A stretch of 62,614 nt of DNA, filler included, from Sluysia triapertura (Eukaryota): the NCBI GenBank assembly GCA_046118255.1. It is 5 parts of 5 records of this genome, joined end to end, with 100 filler letters (N's around TTAATTAATTAA, not from the genome) between each part and the next. Parts side by side here need not be neighbours in the genome. Positions count along the whole stretch, not along the records: positions 37,113 to 49,812 come from JBJNIA010088798.1; 4 more parts are not named here. One strand, 5' to 3'. Made by a program: the position numbers and the translations under genes. This document shows positions 17,727-62,537 of the stretch, one piece after another. The notes under the pieces are model-generated. The model did no database searches and was not told where the DNA came from. It saw nothing but the letters and a program-made list of their open reading frames with translations. The first letter of the stretch is position 1. Every line of letters begins with the position of its first letter.

Positions 17727-18658
17727 TTATTTTATATTTACATCAACATCAAGACTTGTAATAAGAGCTATCGACCGATACGATTGATGAAGTTCGCAAA
17801 GTTTCTTACCCAACTGAGCTCTGTGCGTTATACGATGACTCGGAATCTGAAGCATAAGTGACAGAACATTTGAATCTAAATCATTACCTAATATTAAAAT
17901 AGCACCATGAAGTCCACTATCCTTCAAATTAACTGTATATTCTTTTAATCCGATTTCATTTAACCATTTTATAACTCGATCGTGTGTCCAAACAATTACA
18001 TCTACGTAATCTGCTTGATAGGCTTCACGTCGTTTTTTCTAATTCAGTTTTGTTGTAATTGAGTTTTCGTAAAAAACAAATTCCATGTTGTAAACTGCTT
18101 CTGTGAAAGAAATCGTGAAATTTTAAATGAACTCGTAAATCTTTCTTAGTTAAATGTTCTAACACTCGAGCATCAACAAGGTTTTCCATAAAGCTTGATC
18201 TATATTGACCTAATCCGAGACTTGGTAACCACTGCTGCCGAACCCATTCATGATCCAATTCACCATGGATAAATGGACTGTGCGAAATTATTTGACCAGT
18301 ACTAGTTCGAGCACTATGTTGTTGCTGTCCCATTTGAGTAACTTGAACCATTTCGTGAATTGCCAACCGCAATTTTAAGCGATGTAAAGGATTACTTATT
18401 CAAATTTCATGTTGAATTTCTTGATCACTTAATGATGCCATTATATGGCCTGATTTCACATTAGCACGACAAGCAGCCACATACCAAGCTGGCTGCTAAC
18501 CAAGCAACAATTGTAGGATCATTCCAAAACGTAAAAGATGTTTTTGCATGCATCGCTTCTACTAATAATTCTTTTTTCTTTCTTCGTTTTTCTTCTGTCT
18601 GCTTTCCAAGAATGTAATAATTTAAGGAAACGTTATCTGTATTATTGTTAGTCATCAT
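17727..18658 (-). pseudogene. PPFIA: Liprin-alpha (SYD-2/PPFIA) triple-SAM region, intronless and disabled
   Basis: [86 protein letters not shown] and LKDSGLHGA are liprin-alpha SAM1-3 motifs. Lesions: deletion/frameshift near 18495, TGA in place of Gly at 18400-18402, extra base in the 6-nt homopolymer at 18033-18038. Low-complexity coding-like sequence may extend it to about 17160-19060. Confidence 0.9.
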
Positions 18659-19137
18659 ACGTGATAATCACGTGATAATTGTTGCAACAAAGCAAGCATA
18701 CTGGTTACTGGTAATTTAGATTCTTTATTAGGCACAACCAATAATATGAGACATGGTTTTTCTACCTTTGTCAAAGTTTTAATAAGGCCAAATAAGTTTA
18801 TCGTTCGTTAATTCACCATTTCGTGATTGCAGAATTATTTTGCATTTAAAACGTTACACAGATTTTCTTCGTTTGATTAGTTCAGATTTTGTGGAGAGTT
18901 CAATTTAGGGTCATTGTTCAATAAACCCTGAAATTGATTGTGAAGCGAGTATGATGATGAGGACGAATGCGACAATGATGATAAAGATGCTAAAGAATTC
19001 GTAAATTGAGGTTGTGTTTGTTGTTGCGCTGGTAGAGGTGGAAGAGAATTAATGATAAAAAAATGAAGAAAAACAAAAAGAATAGAAGGATAGATTAGTA
19101 ATAAGGATAAAAGAAATAATAATAATAATAACAATTA

Positions 19138-22883: not shown

Positions 22884-24839
22884 TATTGAGTCTTTAAAAA
22901 TTAATAGCTATGATAACTCAATATTCTCTTGATCAGCTTAAAAGAATCTTAACAATATAAGTTGACACTATATCAAGTATAATGTTGCAGTAATTCTCTT
23001 ACTTAATATTAATAAATATTCACCCAAAATTAAGCTCTTAAAAATCAAATCAAAAATAAGGCAATAATTTATTATTAAACAAAAATCAAATTAGAATTTA
23101 TTGTTATTAGTATGACTTTCCATCAAGCAAAACCAAAAATAACTAAAATGACAAAATCAACAATAGCGTTTATAATAATATTAAAAATACTACAATCTAA
23201 CTGAAAAATCAGGAGTGATGACGCAATAAACACAAAAATATGATTATCCAGAAAGTTTAAAATAGTAATAATAATTAAATATTTTAAAAATAAACTGGTC
23301 AGAGTGTCTCCCAAGAAGTTAATTTAAAATCGCTAAAAATCAAATAATTAATTCAAAATATTTCAAAAATAAACTAAATTACTTAAAAAATGACTGAAAG
23401 TAAAATCAAACAACTTACAATAAAAGTAGCAAATATTAATTTATATTAAAATTATCTTTCCTTTAATAAAATCAAAAATAAAGTTAAAATAAAATAAATT
23501 AATTTTAAAATAATAAAATAACAAAATAAGAAATAAACAAGAAAATTATCCTATGCATGGATCTTCACTGGATAATTACATAATTGTGTCATTGTTGTTA
23601 TTGAGATAAAGATTTAGAAATCCTTACTTTATATTCCCTCATCATCCAATCATTTCCCAGTCTCACAACCAAACATTCTCTCACAGAAATAATCCAAACT
23701 TCTTTGAGAATCAGACCGATAATAGCAACTTTGACAATTACATGGCACGGTGTGTCAAACTTAATTAGGTACAAAATATAGAAATCTGATTTATTATCAT
23801 CCATCATTTCTTTTTACTCTACTCAATCTATTTTTACTTAAATTACTATTAAATCTATTAAATCTATTAAAATAACTATCAACAATACTATTAAAATACA
23901 TAAAAACACGAATTTAATTTCACTTTCTATTATTTAATTAATTTTCCAATTTTCTAATGAAAAATGTTTTAAGGTTCTTATTCTCAAACAAACCATTTTA
24001 CAAACATTTCGAACTCACTTTCGTTGCAATCATTTCATATTCCATTCATCACATTTGCATCATTCTAAGTATTAAAAATTCAACATTCTATTATTAAAAA
24101 TTAATTAAAATTTGACTTTGCTCAATATTAAGGCTTTCCTTACATGAACTAGGTCAAACCATAACTTCATCGAAAGGTCTTTTCAAAACAAATACAAACA
24201 CAGTTTTAAATTAACGTAGCATTCCGCATTCAAAAGTTATTCGTACTTTTTTTTATTAAGTTAATTAAGACTTAATTAATTAATTTATATTTAGACTTAA
24301 TCTTATTCTATGTTTTGAGGTTTTAATAAGTTATTTAATAAGGCATTCAGGAGGCTCTAAGTGTTTTCACCTTCACCTCTCTGATTCCTTTTTCTACTTC
24401 TTTATGTTAATTATTACTATACTAGATTTATTCTTAATACTAATAACAGTGATTTTATTTCTCAACTATTTTAAAGATTTTAAACACTTTATAAGATTAC
24501 TAAAGGATCTCAAGTGATCATCGATGTTCCAAGATACTTAAATGATACTTAGGTCTTAAATGATTTAATGGTAATAAAGTTCAAAGGTATCTTAATGCTT
24601 CTAAAGCTTTTTCAAGTCAATCTCAAGCTTCCATAAGGTCTTAAACCCTAATATAGATCTTTGTAACATTAAGATATTCTTTAGCTGTTAAGATCATTAT
24701 AAATTTTTTCTGTTTCATGATTCTTATTCAAACAATGTTTACAATGTTCAATCCATCACTTCGTATCAGTTCTTCCTTGATTTTATAGTTCTATATGTTT
24801 CTCACTCATTTTCTGTTCTACAGTTTGGCAATCCCAACA
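22884..24839 (-). mobile_element. Family A copy 2: 1.96-kb solo-LTR-like element
   Basis: Ends ATCCCAACA (reverse complement TGTTGGGAT, as copy 1). Left end TATTGAG is a mutated TGTTGGG. Exact TTTC flanks at 22880-22883 and 24840-24843. Alignable to 2017-3806. Confidence 0.8.
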
Positions 24840-25099
24840 TTTCTCCAGGTAAAATTAAAGAAGTTTTACATTATTTCTACTATGGCCAGATCAATCATAA
24901 ACACAATCCAAGACATTTCTCATAGATAAAATCTTAAACGATCTAACACAAACAATATACATAAAACAGAAACAATTTTCACTACACTCTGTATGTAGAT
25001 AGATATAGTTACTATTTTGATTTATTTAGAACAAGGTGAAGAAGAAGCTTAATCAAAATAATTATTTTTAAATAATATGAAAGTTTAAAAATAGCTAAT

Positions 25100-32994: not shown

Positions 32995-35869
32995 ACTTTG
33001 TTATATAATAGGGGTTGAAATGAAATGGAAAATGCGAGACCCTACAATCCTAGACATATTCACTTAAAGGCTTACTTATACCGGAGGTTAAATATGTAGT
33101 TTAATTTATAATTTACTATCGTTTATTGAACACGATATTTTCTGAAAGTCAATAATTTATCGTGCACTTAAGATATCAACTTATCTCAATATGTGGCGTT
33201 TTTTTAATTAAAGAATCTTGGAGTTCATTTAGTAGTGGTATTGATTTTACTGTCGTATTTCGAACACGGTTTTTTAAAGATTGAAGACTGATTTTAAATA
33301 AATAATTTTTACAGTCGAAAATTTAAAAATCGGTTTTTAACTCTTAATTAAATATGAATTTGTCGAATGCATATTATCACAAAAATCAAGTAAAGTATTC
33401 GAACAATTATAAAATATGCGAATTATAATACAATAAAATAAAATTCGATATATAGTTTAATGTAATTAGTACAATTAAATTTTATGATTAATTTTAATCA
33501 ACTTCGTATACTTTTTCGAAACTATTTGAATTTACCAGATTATATTAAAATATCTTGGGTAAAGAAATATTATAATTTAATCTATCTAAAATAGATTATA
33601 CTTAAAAATTTTAACTAACGATGAACCAAATTTATAGATTAAGAAATTCCGAAGATAATATTTTCTCCGACAGCAATTGTAAAATAATAATTCTTAGTAA
33701 AAATTACATATAATGTAAACTGAACAAATCTCAAAGTAATTTTTCATTTAACAGCGTTTAACAAAATAACAATTCTCGTGAAAATATTTAAAAGTAGTTA
33801 TTGTTTATATATATATATATATAGTTCTCGTTATATAGTATTTTAGATGGCCTTGACTTTGATAAAACAATTGTATTTTTTCAATTTTAAAATATTATTA
33901 AACTATAAATGTATCTACAAATAATAATATATCAATTTAGTAATATTAATAACACTATACATAAAATCAATAATTATGAATTATTTATAATGTCCATTTT
34001 ATAATATTTTCTCTAAAATGCAAATTTTCTGTAGCTCAAATGAAAATGAAATATTCTATTTCAGATTAATTTTTACATTTGACACCATTTATGTAATGGT
34101 AAGATTGACAAGATTTATAAGATGTTAATCGTTTGTGTTGAATTGATGAATTGAATTAATGTATGAATTCTATTTGTATGTGTATGCTTGTAATCAAAAT
34201 ATATACACATATTTTGTCCAGAGATATAAATTCATATTCATAAGATTCATTGTATGTGTCAGAAGCGAGTCGAGTGTTACATTTATTAAATATTTAAAAT
34301 CAATTGTGTGTTCTTATATAAATGTATCGAAATTATGCCTTAATCCACAAAATTTTATAATTAATTGTGATGGGAATAATAATTACGAACAAGCTTGAAA
34401 ATCTCGAAAGCTGTCTGGCCATGACGAAAAGAAGTTACTGGTTTCAGATGTAGAATGTAATAATTATTATTTAATTTGCCAATTATGTTGCACAGATCTT
34501 TTTGAATTAAGATACATGCAGGTATTTTTTAAAGATATGTGATCAGGTACAATATTACTAAATACATTACTAAATTTATAATCACTTTATCTATGAAACA
34601 TATTACAATTGCACTTTATGTACAAATTGAAAACATAAAAGGTTTTATTGAAATGCATTAAAGTTAAATTATAATAGAATTTGTTTATACAATTTTCATT
34701 TCGTGCATCATGAAAAGGCGCGATTTTTCTCTTATTTTACGGGGGTGAAGCTTACAAAACTTTAAATCAAGAAAATTTTACAACCGATAAACATTAAGAC
34801 GTGCAGTTGCTTTTTCGTGATTATGAAAATGGTATCATATCTATTCAAGAATTGAAAAAATTACTTGCTTTCGTATACATAGTAGGCTTGCTTAGAATGT
34901 CCATGATCATCTTCGTTTTGTATGTTTTTTTTGCAAAATGTCTTTTTCTATAATGGGTTCGTATATAGTGCTCGGCTTTTTGAGGCTTTTGAGTCTTTCA
35001 ATCCTTCACTATATCTTGAAATTTGTAATTTTGTGTTACTTGCACTGCTTAAATAATCACTTAAATTATCTTCTCTATTAACTCTTCTCAAATCAATAAG
35101 TCTTTTAAAACACCACTAATTTTTATTCAAAACAATATATGAAACTAAGTACATTATTAAATTATTCCAAAAATATCCAATAATTACAGTTACATATGTC
35201 AGAATATTCAAAATTAAAATAACAATTATCAACAATTAAACAATAATAATAAGAATAATATTAAGAAATATAAAGTCACGAAGGCTTTATTTTCTTCTAG
35301 TAATTAATTTAAAAAATGATTTTATAATTGGTCAATAACCAACTGATATCCGTGAAAGCTGAGAGAAGTACTAACACAATTAAACTTACTACTTAATATT
35401 AAAATAAATTTTCAGAGGATATCGCCAACTGATCTTTTTTAAATTGAATTTGATGTCTTCGCGAATTTGAGAATTATTGTCGTTATACTGTACGTTTTAT
35501 TATCGTTGAGTCTTATTGTCTTGTTTACCGTTTTTGTATTCGTCTGTCTACTGAAAATAGAAATTTGTTTATTAAGATTTTAGAAATTTTTAATTTTATT
35601 TATATGCAATTCCTTTGTTAAGTGTCTTTTAATTTTATTAATAATGTTAACAAAATCACAATTAAAAAATACTAAACGGTTTATCTTAAAAATCAAAGTA
35701 TATTCTAAAAAGTAAAAGTACTACATAAAGACCGATTTATTAAATTTATTACACATTGTGAGAGAGGATTTATCAAGACAAATAAAAGGTTGAAGAAAGT
35801 CAAATGAGCTTACTTCTGAATTTACATTTTGATCTTTGAGGAACATGATATAGTCGTTGTTATTATCTG

Positions 35870-36397
35870 CGACCATGGACCACTGTAAAAGATTAAACCA
35901 TAATTCATCTTACTTCACCATAAAAGTAGAAACATCAGTTGTAAATCGCTGTATCAAATTCATAAAGCAATTTGATAGTTTAACACCTGAGTTAACTTTA
36001 TTAACTGACTTGTTTATCGTTTTAGCATAATTTTCATCATAAAACTCGGTTACATTATCACTCGTCTTAAATATATAAATTTAGTGATGGTAGTAGGAGT
36101 GAAGTATTCATTCGGTAAACTTGTTCATACAGTTTTAAAACTTGATTTAATATCATCAAATTCATCGAGATTGAGACTAATTAGAGATGTTATCAAGTAT
36201 TTGTACAATTGAGTAATTAAAATCATTAACTTAGAATGATTGCTAAAAGCATTGATCCAAAAATTTGGAATACATTTTACTAAATTATTACGTTGCTGAA
36301 TTAATGATTGTCTTTTTAAATCATGATCATTATCTACTTCTGACATTTCTCTAGCTTGATCATTAAATCCATTTGAATTGCTCTTGCTGACACTCAA
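35870..36397 (-). pseudogene. SET: SET/TAF-I (nucleosome assembly protein family) intronless pseudogene
   Basis: RQSLIQQRNNLVKCIPNFWINAFSNH and DEFDDIKSSFK match the SET IPNFW and EFEDIKSGY motifs. After a stop and frameshifts, GEV/DELWFNLLQW resembles GEVIKDDIWPNPLQY. Confidence 0.8.
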
Positions 36398-36659
36398 TTT
36401 TTCCCACTTTCTAGACCAAAACCATATTTTTGTTAATTTTTGAGAAAACTATATTGAACAACGTAATTGAAAATTATCATCGAAAATAAATTGTGATTAA
36501 ATTTTGTTGCAAAATATTGTGCACACTAATAATTTTAGTATGGGTTTTATATGGCCAACTAAAACGATTTGATACGTTTCCGTATTTTATTTTTTAACAG
36601 CTTTATTGAAATTATTATTATTGTAAGATTTTTTTCTTTTGAATTTAATGTGTTCTTAG

Positions 36660-36990
36660 TTTATGCTGTGAGTCCCTTACAATCTTAGACTTACTCACTT
36701 AAGGGCTAAGTTGCAAGTAGAACTTAATCGGATGTATCTACAAATAATAGAGTAAAAGTGGGTGTATTTCTTGCTAATAAAAATCGTCTAAAGAATTCTT
36801 TTTATGAAAAAAACTCTGATCAGTATTTTTAAATAAATTTTATATTTTATTTTCTCTTTCATTAAATCAACAATAATATGTTAAGTAGTATTTTACTACC
36901 GCATTGAAAAAACGCTATCCTTAATAAACTTTCACAATTTAGTAAAAATATTGTATATTTTTCAACCGAGTAAAATCGGTGGGCCTTACT
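36660..36990 (-). repeat. Dispersed repeat family C, copy 2
   Basis: Reverse complement matches 9600-9922 at both ends. Confidence 0.65.
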
Positions 36991-37012
36991 TTATATACAA
37001 TAAATTATAAAT

Positions 37013-37112
37013 NNNNNNNNNNNNNNNNNNNNNNNNNNNNNNNNNNNNNNNNNNNNTTAATTAATTAANNNNNNNNNNNNNNNNNNNNNNNNNNNNNNNN
37101 NNNNNNNNNNNN
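37013..37112. other. Artificial contig spacer
   Basis: N44-TTAATTAATTAA-N44. Confidence 0.95.
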
Positions 37113-37313
37113 ACTACAAATCATACATTGTATATACCCATAGCCGTTGCTTCTTCACAGTCAATCTCTCGCTTTTCTTTTACCTATTACTTCATGTATA
37201 TGTAAGAAAAGAGCAAGATATGAAAGAACAGTTCTTGTGTTATTAAGAATTAAAGACTTATGCATTTTTATTGTTGTTGATATTATAATTATTATTATCC
37301 TTCTTATTATTAC

Positions 37314-37352
<39 letters not shown>

Positions 37353-37448
37353 CAATTTTATCATTTTATTCGTCATTATTATTATTATTATTAGTATCAT
37401 TAACATTTTTGATCATAATCATTTTAATAAAGTACAAATGAGCAAATT

Positions 37449-37602
37449 ACCACCATTCATACTGACATAATTAATCTCTGTGTACAAATGAATGTCAGCA
37501 TGAATGGTGGTTTACCTCTCATCAATTTAGTCTGCTCATTATTACTAGTCGTCCAACCAGAATTGTTGTTATCATCACTTTATGTTTCTCTGGTTGGACG
37601 AC
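37449..37602 (+). ncRNA. Two-hairpin structured module, copy 4
   Basis: HP1 37449-37511 (20 bp, 1 mismatch). HP2 gtcgtccaaccaga/tctggttggacgac (14 bp perfect). Confidence 0.55.
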
Positions 37603-38029
37603 AAATCAAAGTGAGGTAAAATTAATTATATCACAACCTAGTTAAACTGTAAATACACAAAGAGATATTACTAGCAATTGAATGATATTTATTTTTTACT
37701 GTCATCAAATTATTACCCAATTACAATCATTTTAAAGTTCAGTTATATAGTTTGGTTTGTAATAGCTACCAAAAAAATAAACAGAAAAAGACAAAAACAG
37801 TACAGTTATAAATTAAAAAATCATAGTACGAAGTATATTAATCAAAGATTGTGAATTAAATTTTGAGGCCAAAAATTTCATTATCGAAGAACTTTTATAA
37901 ACATAGTAATTAACCAACAATAATTAGTGAATTTTCACGTTCATAAATTATAATCATTGAAGTTGAAATAGTGACAACTCTGTCTGAATTATATTCATTA
38001 GTTCCAAAATTACCAACAAAGTAGATCTT

Positions 38030-39073
38030 TTGATGATTTCTCAACCTATACCAAATACAAATAATTTGAGTGATGCTGTTCAAAATAATTCTGTATCGGC
38101 TTATAGTAATTCAGATTTATATAGTGGAAACGATTTTAGTACATCTAAAACTGATGATAAAGTACAGTATGTTAATCAACCGATCATTTCCAATGAAAAA
38201 GAGAATTGCGTTTATGTTTCCAACTCGTTTATTGTAGATGAATCTTTGAATTTAAATGCACTAAATTCATTATCATATGTACAATTTAGATCAACCTATC
38301 TATCCGATGACAAAATATTAAGTCAGCATAAAGTTAATGTTAAAGTAAAGGATGTGACCAACTTAAGCAGTGTTACAAGTAGTCGTGACGATTCTATACC
38401 TACTAGTTCTAATCAGTCGACTGATCCAAAAAAACGAAAATTAATACAACAGCAATTATTACTGTTTCTTCATGCACATGAAGGTTCAATAATTAGTACA
38501 AGGTTATCGCATGAAGGTTCAATAATTAGTACAAGGTTATCGCATGAAGGTTTAATAATTAGTACAAGGTTATCGCATGAAGGTTCAATAATTAGTACAA
38601 GGTTATCAAATGAAGGTAAAATTGTTCTTTTTAATTCAATGTTGCTGGAAAAATATAAAGTTAACCTTTTTAATTCAATAATATTAAACAAATACAAAAT
38701 TGACCTTTTTAATTCAGTGTTGTTACAAAAAAGTAAAGTTGATCCTTTTAATTCAATGCCGTTAAACAAATACGAAATTGATCCTTTTAATTCAATTTTG
38801 TTAGAAAAAAATGAAGTTGATTCTTTTAAGTCAATATTGTTAAACAAATACGAAATTGATCCTTTTAATTCAGTGTTGTTACGAAAAAGTAAAGTTGATC
38901 CTTTTAATTCAATGTCATTAAACAAATACGAATTTGATATTTTTAATTTAGTCTTATTAGACAAATATAAATTTGATCCGTTTATTTCAACGCTATTAGA
39001 TAAATATGAACTTGACCTTTTTGATTCAATGTTGATAGATACGAACTTGGCCTTTTCAATCCGATGTTATTAG
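38030..39073 (+). CDS. Family B ORF (347 aa): Ser/Asn-rich region, CBP/p300 TAZ1-like 19-mer, 11-aa and 13-aa repeats
   Basis: Long intronless ORF in AT-rich DNA containing [19 protein letters not shown], then ([11 protein letters not shown])x4 and about 12 DPFNSxLLxKxxx repeats. Confidence 0.5.
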   Translation: [347 protein letters not shown]

Positions 39074-39080
39074 ACAAATT
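38477..39080. repeat. Compound minisatellite: 33-bp x4 then 39-bp x about 12
   Basis: CATGAAGGTTCAATAATTAGTACAAGGTTATCG at 38477, 38510, 38543 and 38576, then degenerate TTGATCCTTTTAATTCAAT... units. Confidence 0.9.
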
Positions 39081-39777
39081 TAAGATTACGACAAGACGAC
39101 CTCATGTGTGCAGTCGTAAAGCAATGATGAATTGGTTGGATATGTATAATAACAAAATAACAATTAGACGACCCAGAATACAAATAAACGTTCTGCTTAA
39201 TACAATACTGTCATACAGTTGTGATATGACGATGGTGCAGTCGTGTCCACTCAAAAAGGATAGAGTATTAGAATTCGTTAACAACACCAAACCGTTCAAG
39301 TTAATCGTTTCATTAGATGAAGTTGCATATACTATTACCGAACCTATTACGAACTTAGGTAATTCTTTTATATTACAATTTTATTATAATTACTTTTATA
39401 ATCATTGTTATATTTTTTTAATTGTAGTAATTTTGCCATTCACCAAGTCAATGAATCGAGAGATATTAACAAAATTTAAATTAATTAATAATTCCATACC
39501 GTTTTATGTTTTACAAATAAATAGTTGTAAATTTTGTCTTCATGAATTTGATTTTTATTTTATACGAATTTTAAATGTTCATATTAAGACATCAATGTAT
39601 CATACATTATACTTTAAAATAATAGACCAAACAATCATGATTCCAATTGATATTTATAAAATTCATATTTCAAAAACTTACAAATTATCTAACGTAACAG
39701 CACCATTTAATCTAATAATCATCTACATGATGATCATAAACAAATTATGGCACATTATAACCCCATCCACACCATAG
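39064..39777 (+). CDS. Family B downstream ORF (237 aa), probably the frameshifted continuation of 38030-39073
   Basis: Overlaps the previous ORF and begins with LLDKFK, continuing the 13-aa repeat phase. No known domain. Confidence 0.4.
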   Translation: MLLDKFKITTRRPHVCSRKAMMNWLDMYNNKITIRRPRIQINVLLNTILSYSCDMTMVQSCPLKKDRVLEFVNNTKPFKLIVSLDEVAYTITEPITNLGNSFILQFYYNYFYNHCYIFLIVVILPFTKSMNREILTKFKLINNSIPFYVLQINSCKFCLHEFDFYFIRILNVHIKTSMYHTLYFKIIDQTIMIPIDIYKIHISKTYKLSNVTAPFNLIIIYMMIINKLWHIITPSTP

Positions 39778-39940
39778 TTTATTTTATAATTTATTAACAT
39801 TTTTATTGAATGACAATTATACAATTTATTTTTTGAGGAATTAAAATTTACAACGGCGTTACCAGATAAATTAGAGAGGATAAAAACAAAAGAAGGCAAC
39901 ACATAAAGGTTTTATGGACATAACATTTAATAGTACAAGA

Positions 39941-41145
39941 CAGAAGTCGTCAGCATTTTGGGGCCTGATTGCGTTTTATGAGAGTGTCGAACCTCAGGGG
40001 TTTTTAAAAATATTACATAAAAAATTTTATCAAAAAGTATTTTTTCAAATTGCTTAAAATCAATAAAATAATGAAGATTCTTAAAGATATTTTAGTTCTA
40101 TATATAATAAGCAAGTAAATTGACAAAAAACAATGTATTTTAAAAATCTTTTGTATTCAAAAATCCAAAATTTGAATAATTATTGGGAAGCTTGATGTTC
40201 TTTGTCACCTGAAAGCTTCTCAATATTGGGTGCCAGGCTTGTCGATGCCAACAGCAAAACATTATTAAAATTGCTATCGGTTAATCTTGTTCTCAATTTG
40301 TTTTAGTATATATCAATTTTGAAAATAATTACTCACATTAGTGAGTGCTTCCAAACAAAGATATCTTTTTTTGCATGGTTCACTAGGTTAGAATACTTTC
40401 CATTTGAATAAATGTATTTTCTATAAAAATCAAGCAAATAAACATCGGAGTGAAATTGTAATTTCAATAATTCGTCACAGTGCATTTCCGCATCAAAAGG
40501 ATTAGCAAAGAAGCTTGAATTCATTCTTCAGATTTTTGATTAGATTCACAAATATTTCTGGATTTTGTGGTTTGTATTCTTGAAGGGATGGTATCTAGTT
40601 TTCATGCTGAAGCTGACATTCTCACAAGTGTAGTTTTCTTTAAAATGTAAGACTATGACCAAATATTTCATTTATAAGCTGAGATTTACCTAGCAAGTGT
40701 AAATTCAAGTTATTTAAATGACTACAGTTGAAAAATATTGCATTCGCTGCAGGCGTTCATTAAACAACTTTTAACATCTAATGACATCTCTTCAGTACGT
40801 CTTGTGACAGTCCTATCTGATAGACTTATGGAAGAAAATAATGACTTTTTCTGGAAAACAATGTCCACCACTCTCATTAAACATTATTTAATAAATTTAC
40901 CATCCACAAACGGTTTCATCTTTTCAGCGATAAATCTTGACACTTCATAGCTTGCATGCGTATTAGCTTCACATTCACTTATTTTCTTCGTAAAAATGAG
41001 GTCTGCTTTTCAAAGTTTGATTTAAGCTGCTTAACTTCATCATTCAAATGATGGGTCATGAAGTGACACTTGATATTTGCCACTTTATTCACAGCAACCT
41101 TTGCAAGGCAAAATAATTTCGCGGGCCGTAGGTTGCCGAACCCTG
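39941..41145 (-). mobile_element. Internally deleted hAT transposon (SPIN/Charlie/GTF2IRD2-like)
   Basis: TIRs CAGAAGTCGTCAGC and (reverse complement) CAGGGTTCGGCAAC. 8-bp TSD GTACAAGA/GTATAAGA. Remnants ASYEVSRFIAEKMKPFVDGKFIK, SISLSDRTVTRRTEEM and LRTRLTDSNFNNVLLLASTSLAPNIEKL. Confidence 0.9.
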
Positions 41146-44100
41146 GTATAAGAGATTGAATCACAAAAGAAATAGAATTATTACCAACTCTTACTTTGAT
41201 ATTTTTTGCAATGTGATCATGTGAGATGTGACAAAAACTGCAGACAAATATAAAAACATAATGGAATAAATAATTTGATTATTTTATGTTTAATAATTAT
41301 AATTTATGATACCGTGATAAATGAGGTTAGTTAATATGAATGCTTTAATGTTAAATAATCAGTTTTTTCTATTCAATTACATTTACTCTATAAATATTGT
41401 TTACAGATATCAAAAAAGAAAAAATTATTGCAAATTAAGTTTACAGATTAAACGATGTTGATAAATAAGATTTTGGAAGTTGAATGGGTGGACATAACAC
41501 ATAAAATATCAAATATGAAATGATTGTTAAATAGTTCATTCCGTAAGAATATCATCAAATTCAAGACCTTCGATCAAGGATCATCTACTAGGTAAGAACT
41601 ATGATTGTGACCAGTATGTCTGGTTCATCGTCTGCATTGATAGGAGATGGAATATCAAAATGATGTTTGTTTTAACTGCGTTTGTTGACTGTGATAATGT
41701 TTTATAGTACACTGAGTGAACTGATGGCCGATCACCGTATTATTTCGTATAACAGAACAAAGCATAATATTTGAATTATTTGATGTTCTTAACTGTCGAT
41801 TTAAAGATAATGGAGCTTGATTATGTGTAGATATGACATGGAAATTGTTGCTATTATTAGTAGTAGCCAAAAATATTGGACTACTACAATTATTAGATGT
41901 GAAAGTGAATGAATGAGCATGTTGTCTAGTAACATCATTATTTTCACGATATTATGACTTAGTAAAATGTTGCTATCTCTTGCGTTACTATATGCTGTTT
42001 ATTGATAGGAACTGAGTAGTACTTTTCATATCTACAGACTGGGCCAAAATAGTATTTTTTATTTTAATATCTGGCATACCGACTCATTCCACTATTACTA
42101 TCACCTTCATAATTATTTGAGTTTGTAAAAGTGTTAAAAGAAATGAGATGCAAGTTAAAATAAAGAAAAAATATGATAGAAGGTTAGGAAGAATTAAGAG
42201 TGTTTTTGTAGAAATTTCATTGTTATAAAAACTGTCTATTTTTAAGTTTTTTATGTTGGTGTTCTAGGTTTGTATGCGATTGTATATATGTTTAATATTT
42301 TGAGTGTTAATTGCGGTGTTTTGTTTATTTGTTTTGGATGAAATTTTAAATGATAGGTTTGAACCACCACAATTAGAACCTAACATAAGAAAACTAATTA
42401 CAAATTCTCCTTTAGTTTGGATACTGTTACTGTTATCTTAATACACTTTTGCTAATTCTCTGATATTGATCTTATGAATACATTATTTCCTTCGCGTCAT
42501 GGCTTCAAACTCAATAAAAAGATATCATTTATATAAATGATATGTGCAATGATAATATATATTGTTTTTTATTTACTTAACAATTTAAAATTTTATTTCG
42601 ATTTGTACTAGAATATGGCAGGCAAATTAGTATTCTATTTATACCATTCATTACAAGGTGAAGTATTACAGAACTATTACAAATTATTATGAGGCAAAGA
42701 TGAGCATCCTTGATACTGATTATAATGCGATCACAGATTCATATTAGTATATATAATCATAGCTTGTTCTATTCTTAACTTTAATTCAGAGAGTTAATAC
42801 ATACTAGTTAACAGATGGCCAGTAGAAATTATAAGCACTAGTATACCTATTATTTTTATCAATCTTGTAATTTTGAGTTTGATTTATTTAACACTCAAAC
42901 GTACTATTAATAAACGATGTGATATATGACAATAATGAGTGAAAAGGCTAACGTATAGTGAATACAACATAATAATTAATTATTAGTAATTAAAAATAAA
43001 ATTATATAATAATAATATTATTAAAATTAAATGAATAATAATAATGTATACTATTAATAAAAAATTATTTTGAAAGTTTAAAAGCAGAAATAAATTCCAA
43101 CCAATTCCTGATCAAGTATCACGATAAATCGCTATAAATAGCGATCAAAAATAGTAAATATAAGAAGCTTTATAGACTAATTAACAAAGCATTTAGTTGA
43201 ATTATAAATTTGCACGTAGATAATTTGGAAAATACATTAATTTACCATTTAGTTTACACATAACATGAATTTGAGTCTAGAGAAAACGATTTACGGTGAT
43301 GCAATTTATAATAGGATCGTGTTAGCCTTTTCATTTAAGTTTTGTATCCCTAAGCGATACATAAAATCGACTAAAAATCATATTTAAATTTTTTGACCGT
43401 TTTAAATAGGTCAATAAAATAAATTTAAAATTTTAGTTTTCAAATAAATTTCTCGTACTTTAGTCTGGTAAATTTGTTAGAATTTTTATTGTCACGTATT
43501 GTCAAACTTTATTTAATATTTTTGAATAAAAAGAATCAAAATTTTATAGTTTTAAGGTTATAAAATAGTTACATTATCTGTTTTAACTGGTTATTTTAAA
43601 TGCACCTATAAATATATTTTCCAGTCCTATTTTAAATAAGGACTTAAAATATCTTATAAATAAATTGTTAAAATAAGTGTTAAACCTTCATTAGAGACTC
43701 TAGTATAACAACTACTGAGAGAGTTAATAAATTAATAATAAAACAGTCGAACTAGTTTAAGAAATAACTAACTCTTATTATTACTGTTTCGTTTATGAAT
43801 CTTGTGAACAAGTCTTACTTCAGTAAGTTTTGGATCACAGGCGAACTCACTGAATTTTTAAATTAATTTGTGCTAGTAGGATTAGAAGAAATCACAGTTG
43901 TACTATTATTTTCTTTTCTTGCCATTTGTAGATTTTTAGCCGAGAAACGCATGTACAAATGCTTCCACTACTTTAATATTAAAATCTGTATACATTTTAA
44001 AATTATTAGTATCTTTAAATTTGAAAATATTTTTTCTGGCTTCAACATAAATAGTTTGTTGTCTGGATACTAAATATTCTGTATGATAGTGGAATTGCCA

Positions 44101-46738
44101 TGTTGATCAGTACACATTTTGTGCCTCTATGGTTTATTAAAAGTTATACAATTTTCGTTAATCGAAACTGAGTGAATTTTTGGCCAATCCATACGTACAA
44201 CAGCTTGGTAAGTAGAATTATAATAATAAGCTAACTCACAAAATTTCATTCAATTACAGCCATAAAGACATACCGTGTTTTTCTTAATTCTTAACCTACG
44301 GAAAAATAAAATTAAGCAGATTACAGTAAACGACTTATGACGTAGAGTGGTTGTTCCTGTAACTAAAATAATCGTGTTTTATATGAAAATTTGAATTAAT
44401 ATATTACTTTAGTAATTATTCCTACTCTGTGGTAAATCTATAATTCGAGATAATCTAATCGAAATTTTATTCTCTTAACTTTATTCTAATCTCTTAAGTA
44501 TTTCACTAAAATTATTAAACAAAAATGTTTAATATTTATTACAAAAATTCAAAGGTTCTCAGATTATATAAAAATATTTAATTTTAATTTGTTTGATTTT
44601 AAATTTTTTTTCTTCAATAAATCGGAAAATAAATGAGCAAATAAATTAATATAGATTTTACCTCGGATTTTAATATTTTGATCAAAAGAATCAAAACAAT
44701 CTTACAGAAATAACTTACTAAAATGGATGGAAATAATTTGATAGGAAAATTGTTGTTGAACGCCAATTGATAACTTCACTTTACATAACTTTTATTGTAA
44801 TCCGAATTGATTTTTGTTTTTGAGCTGATGAATAACTAATTTTATTTGTGATTTTAAACTAAATTTATGTTAGTATATATCAGTCACCAGCCAATCAAAA
44901 AATAGAATTTCTTGAAAATGTTTTTGTTTCGAAAATATGTTTAGAAAATAGGTTTCCTTTTTTGGAAATAATTTTTTTCATGGAAATTGGCTATTTTAAA
45001 TGATTTGTGTTAAGAAATTTGATGATTTGAGAGGTTGCGATGACAACTTAACAAACACGAAGAAATACGTTGCTATATAAAGAGATTGATTCCGAAATAT
45101 TTGAAGATATTACTACAATTAAGTGCATACATTCGTACTTCGAGAAATAAGTCTGTATTTATTATTATTTTAAATAATTCGCGAACAGGAAGCTAAAAAT
45201 GTATTTCTAAATTCATAAATATATTTGGATGTATAATGTTTATGACTGTTGCGTTATTAGTCTTTAAATTATTTATTATTTTAACAATTAGAAAATTACA
45301 ATTTATTCTAAAATTTTTATTAAAAATTATAAGTTTAATTGAATCTTTACTAAATAACAAAAGAAAATGACAAAGGGATGACATAAATTTATTTGAGATA
45401 TAATTGAATATTATATTTAAATTTGTAACAAAAAATTGTTGCTTATACCCAATCTCCCGGTCAGTTTGCGAATTCCGAAATAAAAATAGTCAACATAAAT
45501 TAATTTGATAGCAATATGATTAAAAATTACCTTTAATAAAAAATTGTCAGAAAGAATGTTCGGTCTAATGTTATTAGGCAGATCCTTTTTAAGTTTGGAT
45601 TCAAATTCGTGAAATAAAAATGTATGACTATTTTCTAGAGTAAATTTTACTTATTCCACATTCAATGTTTCTAATACATATATAACTTGTTTGTAAAATA
45701 CAAAAATCGTATTGATTGAATTATCAGTTTCATCTAAATCAGAGTCTCAAAATTTGACTGATTTTTTCTACTGATAATGTAGGAAAAGTAGTACAGTGAC
45801 AAAAAGCGTTTTAATTTGTTCAAACGTAGGCGTAAACGTCACAGTTTTATATAATTTCAAATAAATTAGCACATTAAAAATTAAAAAACAATTTTTTATT
45901 TCTACGTTATATATATCCATATTAAATGACATACAATACTTTGAACCACTAAAATCATCAGGTAATACCGAATCAAGAACTGAATGACGCTTTTCTAACA
46001 AATTATACTTTCGAAGAGTTTTACTTAAGCATTCATTAAAATAATTACCTGATTTGATTTCTTTCGATCGTTCTAAATTCCGAAAACAGTTTTGTATTCT
46101 TCTACCAACTTTCCGTTTCATTTCACTATGACATTTGCTGTTACACTCTTTTAAATAATTTAAATATCCTTTTCAATTTCAATATTAAATCGATTTAATA
46201 TTCCATTACTATTAGCAACAAAATTTTTGTCGACAATATCCGTTCATAAGAAATACAAATATGACGAAATAATCTTTCCATACGAATTGGAAATTGTACC
46301 TTATTATTTGTTTTGTCAATACATAACTCCAACCAAACTTCAAAATCATAGCAGTCATTCTGTTCAGAAAACTTTTAGAGTCTAAACAAAAGAACTAAAT
46401 TACAATCTAAAATTTCTTCTGGTACACTTTCATTACTAATTTCATTAACATAAATTAACATATCTTGCGGTTGATCTAAAAAGAATTTACTAATTTTTGA
46501 CATATTTTCTTTTATCATAGGCATCTGGAGTACGAACGATTATGATTTAGTTATTTGAATACAAAATGTTCAATCAATATCAGCAGTCAAATGTTTGCTC
46601 CAATTATTTATTTTTTTAACTCTTTTATTCTTGTCCAAAAAATTTTTCAATCTGTTGCTACTTTTAAAATTTTTTAAAATCACTCTGTACACAGTAAATT
46701 GTAATTGTGGAATTCTAATGTTGTAAATGAATAATGAA

Positions 46739-46935
46739 TTTGATTGGGTGACCAATCGTTTGATTTTTGTAATGCAGAATAAATAAGATATTAGAATGTC
46801 ACTCGTCAACCAATCAAAAATGAGAGGCATAAAATTTAATTGAATTGTAAAAAAACCTGGTAACCGTCATCAATTTATGTTAAATCGATTATTTGTATTA
46901 AACTAAATTAGAAACTGTCAATTGATGACGGTTAC
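46739..46935 (-). ncRNA. Two-hairpin structured module, copy 7
   Basis: HP1 gtaaccgtcatcaatt/aattgatgacggttac (16 bp perfect, 46860-46935). HP2 tttgattgggtgac/gtcaaccaatcaaa (46739-46818). Decayed minus-strand ORFs follow (45768-46121). Confidence 0.5.
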
Positions 46936-47309
46936 AGGGGTTAGTAAATTAAAAAATTGCTAAAAATTAACAATTTAGATTATACAAAATTAATTAATGA
47001 ATAAAAATGATAATAATAAAAATTAGAAAAATTACGAAAATTACATAAACCATTTATTATCTTAAAACATGAACTTGATTCTTTTGTAAATTAATCTCTT
47101 CTCTTTACATATTATCTCCTTTGAATAAGATTTGTTGAGCGACTAGAAAGATATGAATTATGGAAAAAGCTGATAAGAGAATATTTAAAGGAAACAATGG
47201 GTAGCTAAAATGTTAAAAGATGTTATTTTGATTTCAATGTCCAAAAATAGTTTAAAATTGTTAGGTTAATGTTTTTCGATGAAATTTCAAGAAATAAATA
47301 TGGTATCGG

Positions 47310-47606
47310 AGATTCGGTCATAATAAAACATGAAATTCCACTAATAGAAGACAAATTAATTAGAAAGAAATTATATATAATTCCGTTATGTAATCAACAA
47401 GAAATGAAAAACCAGTAGATACAATGAAAAATGCCGGAGTAATTAGACCAAGTTTTTCACCATTTTCTTCGTCAGTTTTACTAGTTAAGAAAAAAGATGG
47501 AACAATGAGATATTGTATATATTTTAGAGAATTAAATAAAATAACAAGAAAAGATTTATTTCCATTGCCAAGAATTGATGAAGTGTTAGAATACTTGGTA
47601 TACTAA
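47310..47606 (+). mobile_element. Ty3/Gypsy reverse transcriptase N-terminal fragment, decayed
   Basis: IKHEIPL...[55 protein letters not shown] is a typical Gypsy RT start; upstream stop, truncated before YxDD. Confidence 0.9.
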
Positions 47607-48409
47607 TTTAGCCTGGATGTGGCTATAAAAGGAAAGAGAAAACATAAAATTATACTTAAAAAATTTTAAATAAGTAATCTATTAATTTTGTGTCGTTTTA
47701 CTCTTATATATTAAGTAAAATAAATAATTTTAGGAAGACATATTTTTTCTTCTTTAAAAAGGGGTTAATAGGCTTTGGAGATTTCAACAATTTCATCTCT
47801 TTTCTTTATATAAGTGTTTTAGTTGACGCCTTTTTCTATTGCATCTTTGTGATTTGGACAGATTTTATGGAAAATTGGGGGAGGTCTTACCCACCAGTTC
47901 TTACTAAGGTTCTTTCTCTTTATTGTTGATAAATATCAATACCAGGTTCTTCGGAAGCATCCGTTATATACTCAACGGTGAAATCATATGAGCGACAGAA
48001 TGTGCGCTTATAATAGATGTCACAATCAAAGATGGTTGTTTTGCATAATGGGCAAACAGGCAAAGGTTATGACGAAAATTCAAAAAGGCTATATAGACAG
48101 AAAAATGGAAGTAGTGAAAACAAGGAGAAGTTTTTTAAAAATACTTTCGGTTAGAGCGGAGGCAGATATGAGTGGAATATGACATATCCAGCTGAAAAAA
48201 ATATATAATAAGATGATAAATAAGTAGTATTAGAAATATTAAAAATCCTAAACCTAAATAAAAGTTAAGTAATATTTTAGTTGGTTCATGACTCGAGATG
48301 GATGGTAAACCATCACATAAGTCATTTGCACGATCCTTACTATTTCTAATAACAAGTTTAATATTAATATATATAAATTTAATATCACATATGGTCACTT
48401 ATGCAATAC

Positions 48410-49812
48410 TGTTGTAGCTTAAATCCAAATTATTAAGAATTTAATAATTAAATTAATTCTAAATTTTTTAATGTGTCTTCAGCGATCGTGAAATGGTTAC
48501 TAATTGTTGATTATCCTCTAAATTTCAATACATTCACAGAATTAATGAAAATTCTAAATTACATATTAAAATCCTTGAAAATCCAATTAACAAGTACAAT
48601 TTGTCACAAATTTTCTTATAAATAATAACGAAATTTATTCAACACAAAAATTATTTATTATTATTTTTAAATTAAAAAAACTATATTAAGTCAAATATAT
48701 AACATGAGTAAAAATCAAAATCAAATATAATAATGAGTAAATTAACTAAAAATGATTAGGTCTTCAACAATATTAATTAAAATATCAATATCCACAGAAA
48801 TTAGAGTCAATAACAATTGTATTTATATGTGGTCAAATGACTTTATTTTAACTTAATAACCAAAAAACAAACTGTAAAAATAATTTGGGCAGGGAGTCTC
48901 CCACTATTCAATTAAAATCAACAGCTAAAAGTTAAAAAGAATCAAAATTCAATCTTAAAATAATAGTTAAAATAATAGTTAAATAATAGAAATTCTGACA
49001 GGGAGCCCCAAAAAATATTTAAATTTATCAATAGACAAAATTCCCCAAAATAAAAAATGGTATTTTAATTAATTAAAATTATAAAATAAACAGAAATGTT
49101 ACCATCATGATGGATTTTCATTTTCTCGTAAACGTTGTCTCGAGTGTTGTAGTGTGAAAAAGTTTCTATATATTCGTTTTTACATCTCTTTACTGTCCAA
49201 TCACTCTCAAACTCACAGTCAGGAACTACCTTTACACAAATCATCAAAACCTCGTTTAAAGATTAAACCGACTTAAACGACTTTGACATTTACATGGTAC
49301 GAACTGTCAAGCAAAACACAACAATTCGATTAACTCTCATTTTTTCTTCTACTCTACTCGATCTATTTTTTCATGAATCATTTCTTACATCAAAATAATA
49401 ATTATTATTATTGACATACTTAAAAATAATGAATTTAACTTTAGTTTTTACATCTTAATTAATTTTCAATTCCTCACACTCAATTTCTTAATGGAAAATG
49501 TTTAAGGTTCTCATTCCCAAACAAACTATTTCAACCTCATTTTTGGATTCTCCTATTTCATAGCAATCATTCCATACCCAACTCATTATCTCTTCATCAT
49601 ACTAAATATGAAAATTTCATCATTTTAAATTAAATATTAATTAAAATTCGACTTTGCTGAATATAGAGGCTTTCCTCGCATGAATTCGGTCAAACCTTAT
49701 CTCTTTAAAACACATACATGTACAATTAAAGTTTCAACATAGTATTCCTCATTCAAAAGTTATTCACACAAACGTAATTTTCCTTAATTAAGTTAATTAA
49801 GATTTTAATTAA
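48410..49812 (-). mobile_element. Family A copy 3, truncated by contig end
   Basis: Begins TGTTGTAGCTT (compare TGTTGGGGCTT, the reverse complement of the copy 1 end). 49270-49812 aligns with 23720-24280 and with the reverse complement of 2560-3110. Confidence 0.75.
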
Positions 49813-49912: not shown

Positions 49913-51559
49913 ATTAAATTGTTTAATTCTTCAGATAACTCCTTTGATAAATCCAAATTGTACACTTTAAAATCGTTGGTTCTTAACATAATAGTAAGAT
50001 CGTTAACAACTTTTACACTATCAATAACTCGTAATAGCGAAGAAAATTATTTATCTTTTTGTTCCGTACGAATTATCATCATATAAAGAATAGAATGACA
50101 TAAAACGCCAGTTAAGACATGCGTTGAAAACATCATTAATTTTGCATCGATATTCATGTATAGTGCAATCAAATCTTGATCCATTTTAATGTTTAAGCAC
50201 GAAGAAAATTTACTAATTGTATCAGCTAATTTTTTATTGTCTGAATTATTTATTAAACTCATTAGCAAATTTTTATTTAAGTCAAATAAATTTTTGATTG
50301 AATCACTAAACTACTCAAAATTAGTTTCTAATTCTGTCTGACTTCTGCCTGATTGAAAATTGTGAATTTTAATTAACTCTGTCTTATTTTTTGTCATCCA
50401 ATCAGAGTATTGAAAAGTAAAATGTATAATATTTTGTAATTAGTTGTACTCTGATTGGGTCACGTTTGGTGAGTAGATGAAAATGCCAATAATCAAGGAC
50501 TGACGAAAATTGATTTTTATAAAGTATGTCTGATTGCGACCATCATCAACGTTGACAGTCTAATGAAAGATATACATAGACTGCCATCGTTGGTGATGGC
50601 AGCAACCAGTTTAATCAACGTTAATCAAATTTTTATTTATTTTACAATGGTATTAATAATAATAATAACAATAATAAGAACAATAAAATTATTGTTATTA
50701 TTATTCTTGTAAAGACTTAAAAAAGAAAAAAAACGCATAAACCTTTTAAAAAATCTTGACATAATCTTTTCTGTCGTTATCTTGAATTGTTCTACATATC
50801 AACAAAAAGGAATAAAATAATGTCATATTGTGAAAGAACAACAGGAACTAAATATATGATGTATCATTTGTGGTTGTTGTTTCACAGTATGATAATGAAG
50901 CCTTTAAAGTTTTCTTAAATTTGTTTTTAACAGATGTAATGGTTTAGGTTGTAAGTGAAATGAAGAATGTTAGAATGATTTATTGAAACTTATTGAAGGT
51001 TTATAAGTTAAAATCAAGATTTATTCATTAGATTTAATGGTTTAATGAAAGGTTAAAGTTATTTTAATTTTAAATGATGATTACAAAATAAATCTTGATA
51101 TATCATAATGTTATTGCGAATAATTGTGAATGATGAATAAGGATATATGAAGTGGGTTTAGGTCGGTGTTGTTGATTAAGGTTTTAGATGGATTGATCTA
51201 TGTTTCTTAAGTATTTGTTAGGGTTATTTGATAATGCTATTATATTTATGATTTGTGAAGTTTATATTATGATTGTGGTTTGTTTGTTGAAGTATCTGGT
51301 GATTGAATGTTGTGAATTGTTCGAGGCTAGATGTCGAAGTTTGTTATGCTATGGATGGTTGAAATGTTAGTTGGATTGTTTATATGTGTGAGTTGATGGA
51401 GTGTTGAAAATGTCGAATGTTATTTTATGATGTTTGTGTTGGTGTAGTTCGAAAGTAAAAAGTGTGATTATTTTAAAATTTGAATTTTGGTGAAATTAAA
51501 TTTGTGAATGATGAATATAAATTTTTGATGGATTTTAATTATGAGTGTTGGCCACTACA
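49913..51559 (-). mobile_element. Family B copy 5, 3' part lost at contig edge
   Basis: Ends GGCCACTACA (51559). Reverse complement is colinear with 5862-7000. Hairpins 50540-50599 and 50397-50459; ORF 50047-50268. Confidence 0.75.
50397..50599 (-). ncRNA. Two-hairpin structured module, copy 5
   Basis: Minus-strand HP1 ccatcaccaacgatggcagtcta/tagactgtcaacgttgatgatgg (23 bp, 2 mismatches, 1 G-U). HP2 ccaatcagagta/tactctgattgg. Confidence 0.55.
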
Positions 51560-52679: not shown

Positions 52680-54044
52680 TCATTGTGTGACATTTACTAC
52701 TACTATTATTATTATAATTATTATTGTAGAGGGTTGTTGTTTCTTTTGTGTAGAATTAAGATGTTTCAACGTTATTGAGGGCTTTGTCAGTTTAAATTGA
52801 TTTGAAAAAAAATAGGGATGGCACAGTTGGAACTTTTGAATGAGACAATTACTTGCAAGGTGATCAACGAAAAATTGTTTGCGTATCAAGATATTGTGAT
52901 GCACATATTTGCTGGAATTTAAAAACTTAAAGAATCCTACTTCGTTTAGGTCAATTGTAATTCTAATGTCAACGGTCGTTGCATCTTTCGAGATTTCGAC
53001 CTTAGTTTGTTTATGGTGTGAGTTAACTATAGAAATATTACGTAAAACTTGCAGAAAGGTTCTATCAAAGTCTCGGTTGTTACTTAACTTAGAAATCTGT
53101 TGATTCACTTTATTTTTGAGATTAATGAAATTTACAGTTACATTATAACACCAAAACAGTTTATAAGATTTACAAAATATATATATTACAATTTTAAATT
53201 TATAGTTGTAAGAAAAGAGATTCGCTGGAACTGCAGGCGGTTGTATTTCTTTCCCCATGAATCCGTGAATGTTGAAACTTGCCCTAGGAATAGAGTTATA
53301 AATAATATGATATATAATATTATTGGAGAAGGTAATAATAAAATTTAATGTCAACTTATTACTTGATAGGTACATGCTTTCTGCCTGACTGTCCACCAGC
53401 TTGCCGTTACCAATACATAATAATATTGTTAGATTATATTCATCATCATTTGTATTTTGTTCGACACTGCCAATAAGTAATAATGCTCTGAGGTCGCATT
53501 CGCCATAGTTCGTACTCTGCGTTACATTGAAAAAACGAGATAATGTTCTAGGATCCGATTCGCTGTCATCTACACTCTGCTTTATACTACTAACATCGAT
53601 TGCACTCTGCTTTAAATTACTAACATTGTTTGCACTCTGTTTTACATCACTAACATTGTTCGCACTCTGCTTTACATTAATGACATCGCTTGCACTCTGC
53701 TTTACACTAATAACGTCGTTCGCACTCTGCTTTACATTAATAACATGGTTTGCACTCTGCTTTTCATTGATAACATCGTTTGTACTCTGCCTTACATTAA
53801 TGACATCGCTTGCACTCTGCTTTACATTACTAACATTGTTTGCACTCTGCTTTGTATTACTGGCATCGTTTGCACTCTGCTTTACACTAATAACATCGTT
53901 CGCACTCTGCTTTACATTAATGACATCGCTTGCACTCTGCTTTTCATTGATAACGTCGTTTGTACTCTGCTTAATGTTACTAGTACATGGTGATATGCTG
54001 AGATCACGCTCATCATCGTCTAACACCCAAGGGCTTTCCATCAA
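52680..54044 (-). CDS. Family B-associated ORF (454 aa) with 10-aa repeats (KQSANDVINV) x about 14; function unknown
   Basis: Longest ORF in the window, intronless, about 300 nt downstream of the HP2-type hairpin at 54341-54392; stays open for about 290 codons beyond the repeat. Confidence 0.6.
   Translation of the reverse strand: MMESPWVLDDDERDLSISPCTSNIKQSTNDVINEKQSASDVINVKQSANDVISVKQSANDASNTKQSANNVSNVKQSASDVINVRQSTNDVINEKQSANHVINVKQSANDVISVKQSASDVINVKQSANNVSDVKQSANNVSNLKQSAIDVSSIKQSVDDSESDPRTLSRFFNVTQSTNYGECDLRALLLIGSVEQNTNDDEYNLTILLCIGNGKLVDSQAESMYLSSNKLTLNFIITFSNNIIYHIIYNSIPRASFNIHGFMGKEIQPPAVPANLFSYNYKFKIVIYIFCKSYKLFWCYNVTVNFINLKNKVNQQISKLSNNRDFDRTFLQVLRNISIVNSHHKQTKVEISKDATTVDIRITIDLNEVGFFKFLNSSKYVHHNILIRKQFFVDHLASNCLIQKFQLCHPYFFSNQFKLTKPSITLKHLNSTQKKQQPSTIIIIIIIVVVNVTQ
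53570..53975. repeat. 30-bp coding minisatellite
   Basis: Unit about TGCACTCTGCTTTACATTAATGACATCGCT, about 14 copies, with degenerate copies near 53455-53530. Confidence 0.95.
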
Positions 54045-54340
54045 TTGAAATTATTTGTAATTTTCAAAATGACTGAATTTGTTGAATAATTGAATCGTTA
54101 TAGTTTTCCAACTATTGATTTTAAAATATACTCAGAATTGTGTATTGAATTATTTTCAATATGTCTGACTACTTAGTCTAATTGTTGTGTGTCTCGTCTG
54201 CTGATTACTAATTGTTTTTTCATACAGTACTGTCTAATATAATCACTGTTTTTTTATTCGCTGTTTTATTGAAAATGCAGTATAGTTCTCTTTTTTAACT
54301 AACAATTTTCTTTGTTCTCCACTGTTTGCCATTAATGAAT

Positions 54341-54392: not shown

Positions 54393-55723
54393 GATGTACA
54401 TAAGACGGCTACTTGTACGAAAAAATTATTACGTAAGAATTAAAGTGTTTATGAATCATGATAGTAATGATAATGAATAATAATAAGAATAATAATGATA
54501 ATAATAAAAACATGAAAATTATAAAATGACAATAATTACGATAAAAAGTAATAATAAGAATAATAACGGTAATAATAATGATATTAATAATAATGATATT
54601 AATAATAACAATAAGTGACTAAATTTATGGGATATTAAATATATTATTTATTGATGAAATGTGTATCGACAATTTAGAATTATATGTCACTATTATTTCA
54701 ATATATTTGTGATATTTATTCTGTGTATAAAAATTCTTTCTCAGGAACAATAATATGAAATAATTAAAATAAATTTACTTTAATTAAATAATTTATTATA
54801 AATTCAATGATACTTACTCAACAATACAATTAATTTTTTCTTTTTATATAATTTATTATTCACATTATTAAATTAATTTGTATAATTACCTCATCACTTT
54901 TCATCATTAATACAATTTGGCACAAATTCTAAAGAACTATTGGATATGATTCAAATAAAACGTTTTTTCATGGATTAACGAAAATAATTACATTAAAGCT
55001 AATTAGTGAATCTTTGTGGCAACATTTTTGTCATTTGGGACATTTCTTCTTACATAGTCGACAAAGAATCATTTCATCAGATGAAATTATGTTACTCTTT
55101 CATAAACGGTGAAATACGATTTCTATGTAAAAATTATTGAATTTATTGATTGAGAAATTTAGGCGTATTTGAGTGTAGACATCGCTAAACCTCGCGGAAT
55201 TGATCATATGAATGAATGTCATATTGAGTATTGAATAATAGTTACATTCTAGTTTAAGTTATGATACATTTATTCTGATGCTTTCCAGGAATACAGATTT
55301 CATTGAGTTGGTAGACCTCTATTCTGCTATTGATATTTGTCCAAAGATATATATTAAAAATATCCCAATTGTGAATAGTTTCTTTATATACATAAATATA
55401 GAAGTAAATTCTTCGACTTACCAAACCGTAGAAGTCATCGCAGAAGTTATGGATTATTTTCTAATACCAATTATTTGCTCTTTGCGTTATTCTATAGCAT
55501 CAAAAATGAACATATATTTTCTGCAAACATTGCAGCATTCCAGAAGAATTCTCCATTCTATTTCATAACCTTTTATTTGAACAAAACATAAATTTGCAAG
55601 TAGTATTTCCGTAGAACTAGTTTTACTTCAAATTTAGTTGTAAAATATTTAATTTTGAATTTTCACACAATAACAATTATTTATTTATTCAAATAACGTT
55701 AAAATAAATGTTTTTCTATTCAG

Positions 55724-62525: not shown

Positions 62526-62537
62526 GTTTGCTTATGT

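Follow-up and report, generated by a model that had tools for sequence, protein, structure and literature searches.

A fragment of the CBP/p300 TAZ1 first helix in frame in a multi-copy repeat family of Sluysia triapertura

Fragments of host genes carried in multi-copy chimeric coding units are described for Pack-TIR elements in the accessible part of the source (PMC8277862), and dispersed gene fragments lying amid transposon relics, with composite open reading frames (ORFs), characterize the tinkering loci of Drosophila, which plausibly arise by ectopic recombination; the accessible main text of the latter report makes no mention of CBP, CREB, TAZ, p300 or nejire (10.64898/2026.08.09.743762). 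Duplication of CBP sequence within an invertebrate lineage is represented by the planarian genes Smed-cbp-1 to -5, which keep most domains according to the accessible part of their description (10.1101/2020.09.08.287045). Regarding the TAZ1 (CH1) domain of CBP/p300 (PF02135; PDB 1u2n, 1l8c and 1l3e), helix 1 comprises D346-A372 and there are three HCCC zinc sites with 12 ligands in total, Zn1 being formed by H362, C366, C379 and C384, as given in the accessible part of the source (PMC11328122).

In this work, we analysed a stretch of 62,614 nucleotides from Sluysia triapertura (assembly GCA_046118255.1), referred to as the window, in which positions 38417-38479(+) translate to a 21-residue stretch of CBP/p300 TAZ1 helix 1, in frame in an ORF of 361 codons (37988-39073(+)) located on the piece 37113-49812 and encoding the protein P0001. 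The locus works like gene-fragment shuffling, a known kind of event, and corresponds neither to a TAZ-domain protein nor to a full CBP paralog. It differs from Pack-TIR elements in that no TIRs or target duplication were found around the unit, the nearby relic, which we take to be hAT-like, being separate and not bracketing; from the tinkering loci in that a single fragment is seen on a 12.7-kb piece, known from DNA alone; and from the planarian genes in that part of one helix, followed by unrelated arrays, takes the place of a largely complete domain set. It is one more animal case of gene-fragment shuffling, unusual only in its very conserved coactivator source, its sub-domain size and its amplified family lacking known relatives; no description of a repeat family carrying a piece of the TAZ1 helix came up in a partial survey of the literature, covering texts without their supplements. 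The features of the locus are the following, with positions counted along the window:

37013-37112, no strand: gap of the form 44N-TTAATTAATTAA-44N, lying between the ORF and the repeat motif at 36585-37000
38024-38482, plus strand: S/N-rich open module of 153 codons, its ATG at 38033 and the TAZ1 fragment at its end (shuffles, contigs)
38417-38479, plus strand: CBP/p300 TAZ1 helix-1 fragment (PDB match, TAZ1 profile, alignment)
38477-38617, plus strand: 33-bp tandem array of 4.3 near-identical units of 11 aa each, with 96% matches
38618-39079, plus strand: in-frame 39-bp (13-aa) tandem array, with about 11 units that have diverged
39031-39036, plus strand: 4-nt shortfall in the last array unit (period 35 vs 39), shifting the frame
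39064-39777, plus strand: orphan C-terminal coding region, in the frame of P0002
39941-41145, minus strand: separate decayed DNA transposon about 165 nt after the stop (ends, and an 8-bp target-site duplication with one mismatch)

A sequence-only reading of this DNA had claimed the in-frame TAZ1 helix fragment, and the claim is borne out by the translation, the structural matches and the profile. Within E<=10, a 67-aa query retrieved six PDB entries, every one of them a CBP/p300 TAZ1 (E 3.5e-5 to 2.6e-4), and 17 of the 21 fragment residues are identical to 7qgs; positions 38423-38479 correspond to CBP D346-H364, with Lys at codon 38429-38431 where CBP has Glu. A TAZ1 profile derived from three database proteins gave the fragment 26.8 bits (E 8e-8), the runner-up in the six-frame translation of the window reaching 2.3 bits; the score of the fragment is not independent, as those proteins had been retrieved with the fragment as query. 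By its sequence the fragment is thus CBP-derived, chance resemblance being excluded because of the PDB E-value of 3.5e-5. The match has a sharp 3' end, and three full TAZ1 proteins (P0004-P0006), which reach 69-74 bits in Pfam, run unbroken past this truncation point.

What was retained amounts to 19 of the 27 helix-1 residues and one of the 12 zinc ligands, the H362 equivalent alone, with helices 2-4 missing altogether; no Cys follows, in agreement with the absence of Cys ligands noted from the sequence. A profile of the TAZ1 remainder reached at best 1.1 bits over six frames of the window, and a G-x6-L-x-H spacing in the 33-bp unit that recalls a TAZ1 loop was missed by this profile and is treated as chance. 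None of the three fragment versions submitted to Pfam matched any family at E<=10 (TAZ cut-off 25 bits). Likewise, no KIX, bromo, HAT, ZZ or TAZ2 domain was found by Pfam in any of the 23 ORFs scanned among the 28 of at least 100 aa in the window, a scope limited to ORFs of this length within this DNA. From the known structure it follows that the fragment cannot bind zinc or adopt the TAZ1 fold, and with no other part of TAZ1 present in the window, neither a TAZ fold nor a decoy is likely; a folded domain, and hence a decoy surface for TAZ1 ligands, would be unavailable, and the decoy module proposed earlier is not supported, given that one zinc ligand and a partial helix cannot form TAZ1.

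The module carrying the fragment is of low complexity, resembling a disordered linker; none of 20,000 base shuffles left it open. The last His codon of the fragment (38477-38479) doubles as the first CAT in the 33-bp array, as had been claimed, and this array therefore begins at the truncation point. In the 39-bp array, pairwise differences between units amount to 188, 101 and 149 at the three codon positions, position 2 being the least variable; pN/pS in the ORF frame is 0.67, which is weak evidence, as a stop-filled antisense frame gave 0.39. Two candidates within the arrays were discarded: an antisense ORF (38470-39066), open but with a pN/pS of 1.05, and a U-box in the 13-aa array, with a weak 17 bits against a cut-off of 21.4. 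Downstream, splice signals indicate a probable 69-nt GT-AG intron at 39359-39427. No relative of the remaining protein was found: comparison of P0001 with proteins of near length gave none at E<=0.01 among 8000 candidates, the product of 39025-39360 had 0 matches among 1.84 billion representatives, the ESM Atlas contained no usable match for P0001 or P0002, and a reverse transcriptase domain was absent from both proteins. Rfam matches numbered 0, and AlphaFold models computed without an alignment are unusable (pLDDT 29.4 and 30.9).

Two public runs from two studies, X1 and X2, contain 0.29 and 0.06 of the stretch, respectively; no RNA data set is listed as containing it, which carries no information about expression. 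Placement of their contigs on 37420-41900 (4481 bases) at 80% likeness gave 57 contigs from X2 and 2066 from X1, of which 232, 440, 712 and 682 show >=99, 95-99, 90-95 and <90% identity. The ORF is a member of a diverse multi-copy family, because each of the 12 differences listed within the module (38024-38482) occurs in 9-25 X1 contigs. Loose ends were found in six contigs before 38026 and in five X1 contigs after 38482 (agreement 0.72); these five read on in frame and without Cys, so that some members share the truncation point but carry other sequence beyond it. The sequence that other copies carry after 38482 has no counterpart in the 12.7-kb piece (score 28, shuffled mean 27.6). Summed contig depth is about 10x higher on 38020-38469 than on the flanks in both runs, with its maximum at 38320-38469, a hint only, as summed depth is not copy number and X1 and X2 were chosen for this stretch. 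Among the X2 pieces, two from the module differ at 51 of 295 nt and at 30 of 182 nt yet contain no gap, although two others contain 2 and 11 gap letters; in one X1 joint, 69 nt are passed over without loss of frame. The gapless diverged pieces together with the in-frame skip suggest coding constraint at the level of the family, and from the open module, the codon-position bias and the gapless X2 pieces the family was probably once protein-coding.

The copy in the window appears to be a disabled member of this family, frameshifted, with neutral-looking differences and with a transposon insertion close by. In three X1 contigs, 39031-39036 contains four extra letters, so that these contigs lack the frameshift, and X1 joints skip the transposon at 39941-41145, for which Pfam returned no match. 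Among the 40 differences listed out of 693, a ranked subset, 23 fall in coding frames, 17 of them nonsynonymous and 6 synonymous; for a synonymous share of 0.24 expected under neutrality, 6 of 23 corresponds to P=0.49, so within this subset the differences from other copies look neutral.

Integrating these findings, our preferred reading, held with moderate confidence, is that the fragment derives from CBP and is most probably carried as passive cargo by a disabled copy of an orphan repeat family. A duplication at the DNA level would have inserted CBP sequence up to H364, in frame, into an intron-containing orphan coding sequence, and the chimeric unit would then have multiplied into the diverse family attested by the contigs. 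The sequence after the helix varies among members, and the 33-bp unit at the junction was presumably copied by slippage to give the observed array; amplification would have been followed by decay of the window copy. Among the three roles offered by the sequence-only reading, neutral cargo is the best supported. Its proposal of capture by an element holds as far as a truncated, CBP-derived piece in a multi-copy sequence is concerned, and lacks support in that no termini or transposase tied to the ORF were found. The carrier may be a transposon, or else a gene family that expanded segmentally. The earlier assignment to a repeat family named B, given there with no definition, could not be sustained: the ORF has no clear termini and no paralog within the window, where blastn, tblastn, tblastx and alignment against shuffles gave nothing above chance, and the nearest shared repeat motif (36585-37000) lies beyond the gap at 37013.

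The helix need not have been captured at all if the module represents the 5' portion of a rapidly evolving CBP paralog that had its 3' portion exchanged before amplification, an explanation to which we assign a minor but real share of the probability. The PDB alignment continues at least 6 residues upstream of the DP into the linker (query 25-51 vs 5hou), the S/N-rich, low-complexity composition of the module suits a disordered linker, and CBP has expanded within lineages, with five copies in planarians according to the accessible part of the report (10.1101/2020.09.08.287045). Against such an origin, the 131 residues upstream of the helix have no relevant match in PDB, residues 13-170 of P0001 matched none of six shorter candidate proteins, with nothing at E<=1, the upstream residues of the module bear no likeness to the region upstream of TAZ1 in P0005, and the planarian paralogs, as far as described in that accessible part, retain most of their domains.

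We regard as rather unlikely that a large lineage-specific family has kept a zinc-free TAZ1 first helix under selection in its intact members, as a nuclear-targeting or protein-binding module, with the Glu-to-Lys change yielding an import signal or a new binding helix. The classical monopartite nuclear localization signal (NLS) has the consensus K(K/R)x(K/R), which is fitted by KKRK at residue 148, the sole such motif in P0001. The NLS suggested earlier stands to this extent but is not otherwise supported, in that the motif is common by chance (145 occurrences among the 125,224 codons of the window's six frames), lies one transition from CBP and occurs in a copy frameshifted downstream, the required G>A being the commonest class of X1 differences (118 of 644 places). 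In favour of selection, 16 consecutive fragment residues are identical to P0004-P0006, the rest of the protein having no homolog, and the depth maximum on the module in both runs offers a further hint. Moreover, none of the 40 listed X1/X2 differences (a ranked subset of 693) falls in 38348-38646, as opposed to 12 in 38085-38347; under an even rate, the 135 bp up to the array would be free of differences with P of about 0.007, again for this ranked 40 of 693, and on that ranked subset conservation of the helix may exceed that of its flank. Since no fold is possible, a TAZ binding surface is not available, and intact members would at most display an amphipathic helix that is loose and bears a basic patch. 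If selection did act, a sub-domain scrap of a coactivator would have been reused, highly amplified and joined to variable repeat tails, part of a helix from a folded domain would prove repurposable, and the family would constitute a test set.

A large mobile or virus-derived carrier, with a helix possibly taken from another animal lineage, seems to us improbable. Such an origin would accommodate an orphan ORF with in-frame repeats, and P0004-P0006 are identical to the fragment at 18 of 21 residues and share both of its substitutions, including the unusual LLLFL spelling; however, the search that produced them needed shared 5-residue words and so selected for this spelling, and both substitutions are single-base changes. 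On this sequence likeness, P0004-P0006 may represent the parental lineage, and convergence is also possible. Degenerate patterns of the helix gave 0 matches in JGI metagenomes, IMG/VR and GTDB, and scans for related loci confirmed none in viral contigs, with 0 of 147 stretches in metagenomes; no relative was present in IMG/VR. The probable short intron and the base composition likewise match the rest of the window, which is AT-rich (GC 24.5-27.5% in the five pieces, 4-mer correlations >=0.985).

Regarding the ends of a possible carrier, no convincing inverted-repeat arms were found in 37420-39940; when 37850-38040 was compared in inverted orientation with the remainder of the piece, the top score was 40, and 30 shuffles reached 37 at most, the match lying in AT-rich, repeated DNA. 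No second copy of 38024-38482 was found downstream in the piece when LTRs were considered (scores 31 and 28), and a solo LTR is possible, though the module is an open frame. Helitron ends consist of a 5' TC and a 3' hairpin followed by CTRR.

Finally, splicing of the piece, as an exon of an intact CBP, to the remaining TAZ1, for which the end of the 12.7-kb piece 11 kb downstream leaves room for exons beyond, is largely refuted and, together with the chance resemblance already excluded, hardly deserves credence: there is no TAZ remainder in the window, P0004-P0006 are continuous through this point, and the first GT (38484-38485) leaves a G as base 1 of the C366 codon, so that Cys cannot be restored there.

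The genomic setting adds several observations. The four gaps of the window (13436, 25199, 37013 and 49813) are identical and contain a six-frame stop string; they appear to join separate contigs, the pieces measuring 11.7-13.4 kb and several ending in TTA microsatellites, and adjacency across gaps therefore cannot be assumed. Host exons include SAM domains of liprin-alpha (17550-18670(-)), rootletin (55674-62540(+), introns of about 70 nt) and, by eye, an EF-hand-like stretch (12127-12327(-)). A copy of SET/TAF-I (NAP family; PDB E 6.4e-10) at 35700-36448(-) is decayed, with stops and frameshifts, and appears to lack introns; the 37013 gap separates it from the TAZ fragment. SET inhibits acetylation by p300/CBP.

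The repeat motif at 36585-37000 is shared with about 9520-10005(-) and 33013-33094, has a 53-nt core with 91% identity between two copies, and is likely the end of a mobile element; its part at 36640-36730 has no unusual tendency to form a hairpin (z 0.31). At 7258-9365(+), six S/N/D-rich ORFs of 91-169 aa, all broken, form a run that ends beside this motif; the five scanned had no significant Pfam match, and their likeness to P0001 did not go beyond shuffles. Two further families, old and dispersed, are found at 2016-3195, 23628-24840 and 49368-49809, and, with strong strand skew, at 5862-6885 and 50538-51559; their copies share 68-73% identity and link the pieces to one genome. At 52680-54050(-), a 456-codon ORF without Pfam match contains an array of 13 units of 30 bp (10 aa), over which both strands are open.

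On the piece of the ORF itself, 37440-37620, in X1-repeated DNA, contains a pair of neighbouring strong hairpins (z -6.7 and -4.4), with no Rfam match. Repeated DNA at 39780-39940 and 41146-42000 is interrupted by the hAT-like relic, and its minus-strand remnants, which resemble a DDE transposase of the pogo/Tigger type, had no match in Pfam; the reading of the minus-strand flank covered 40150-41145, 40700-41000 and 41400-42200. Two ORFs of 134 and 77 aa are present at 45420-46172(-), and a scrap resembling a Ty3/gypsy reverse transcriptase (RVT_1 E 0.15) lies at 47394-47603(+).
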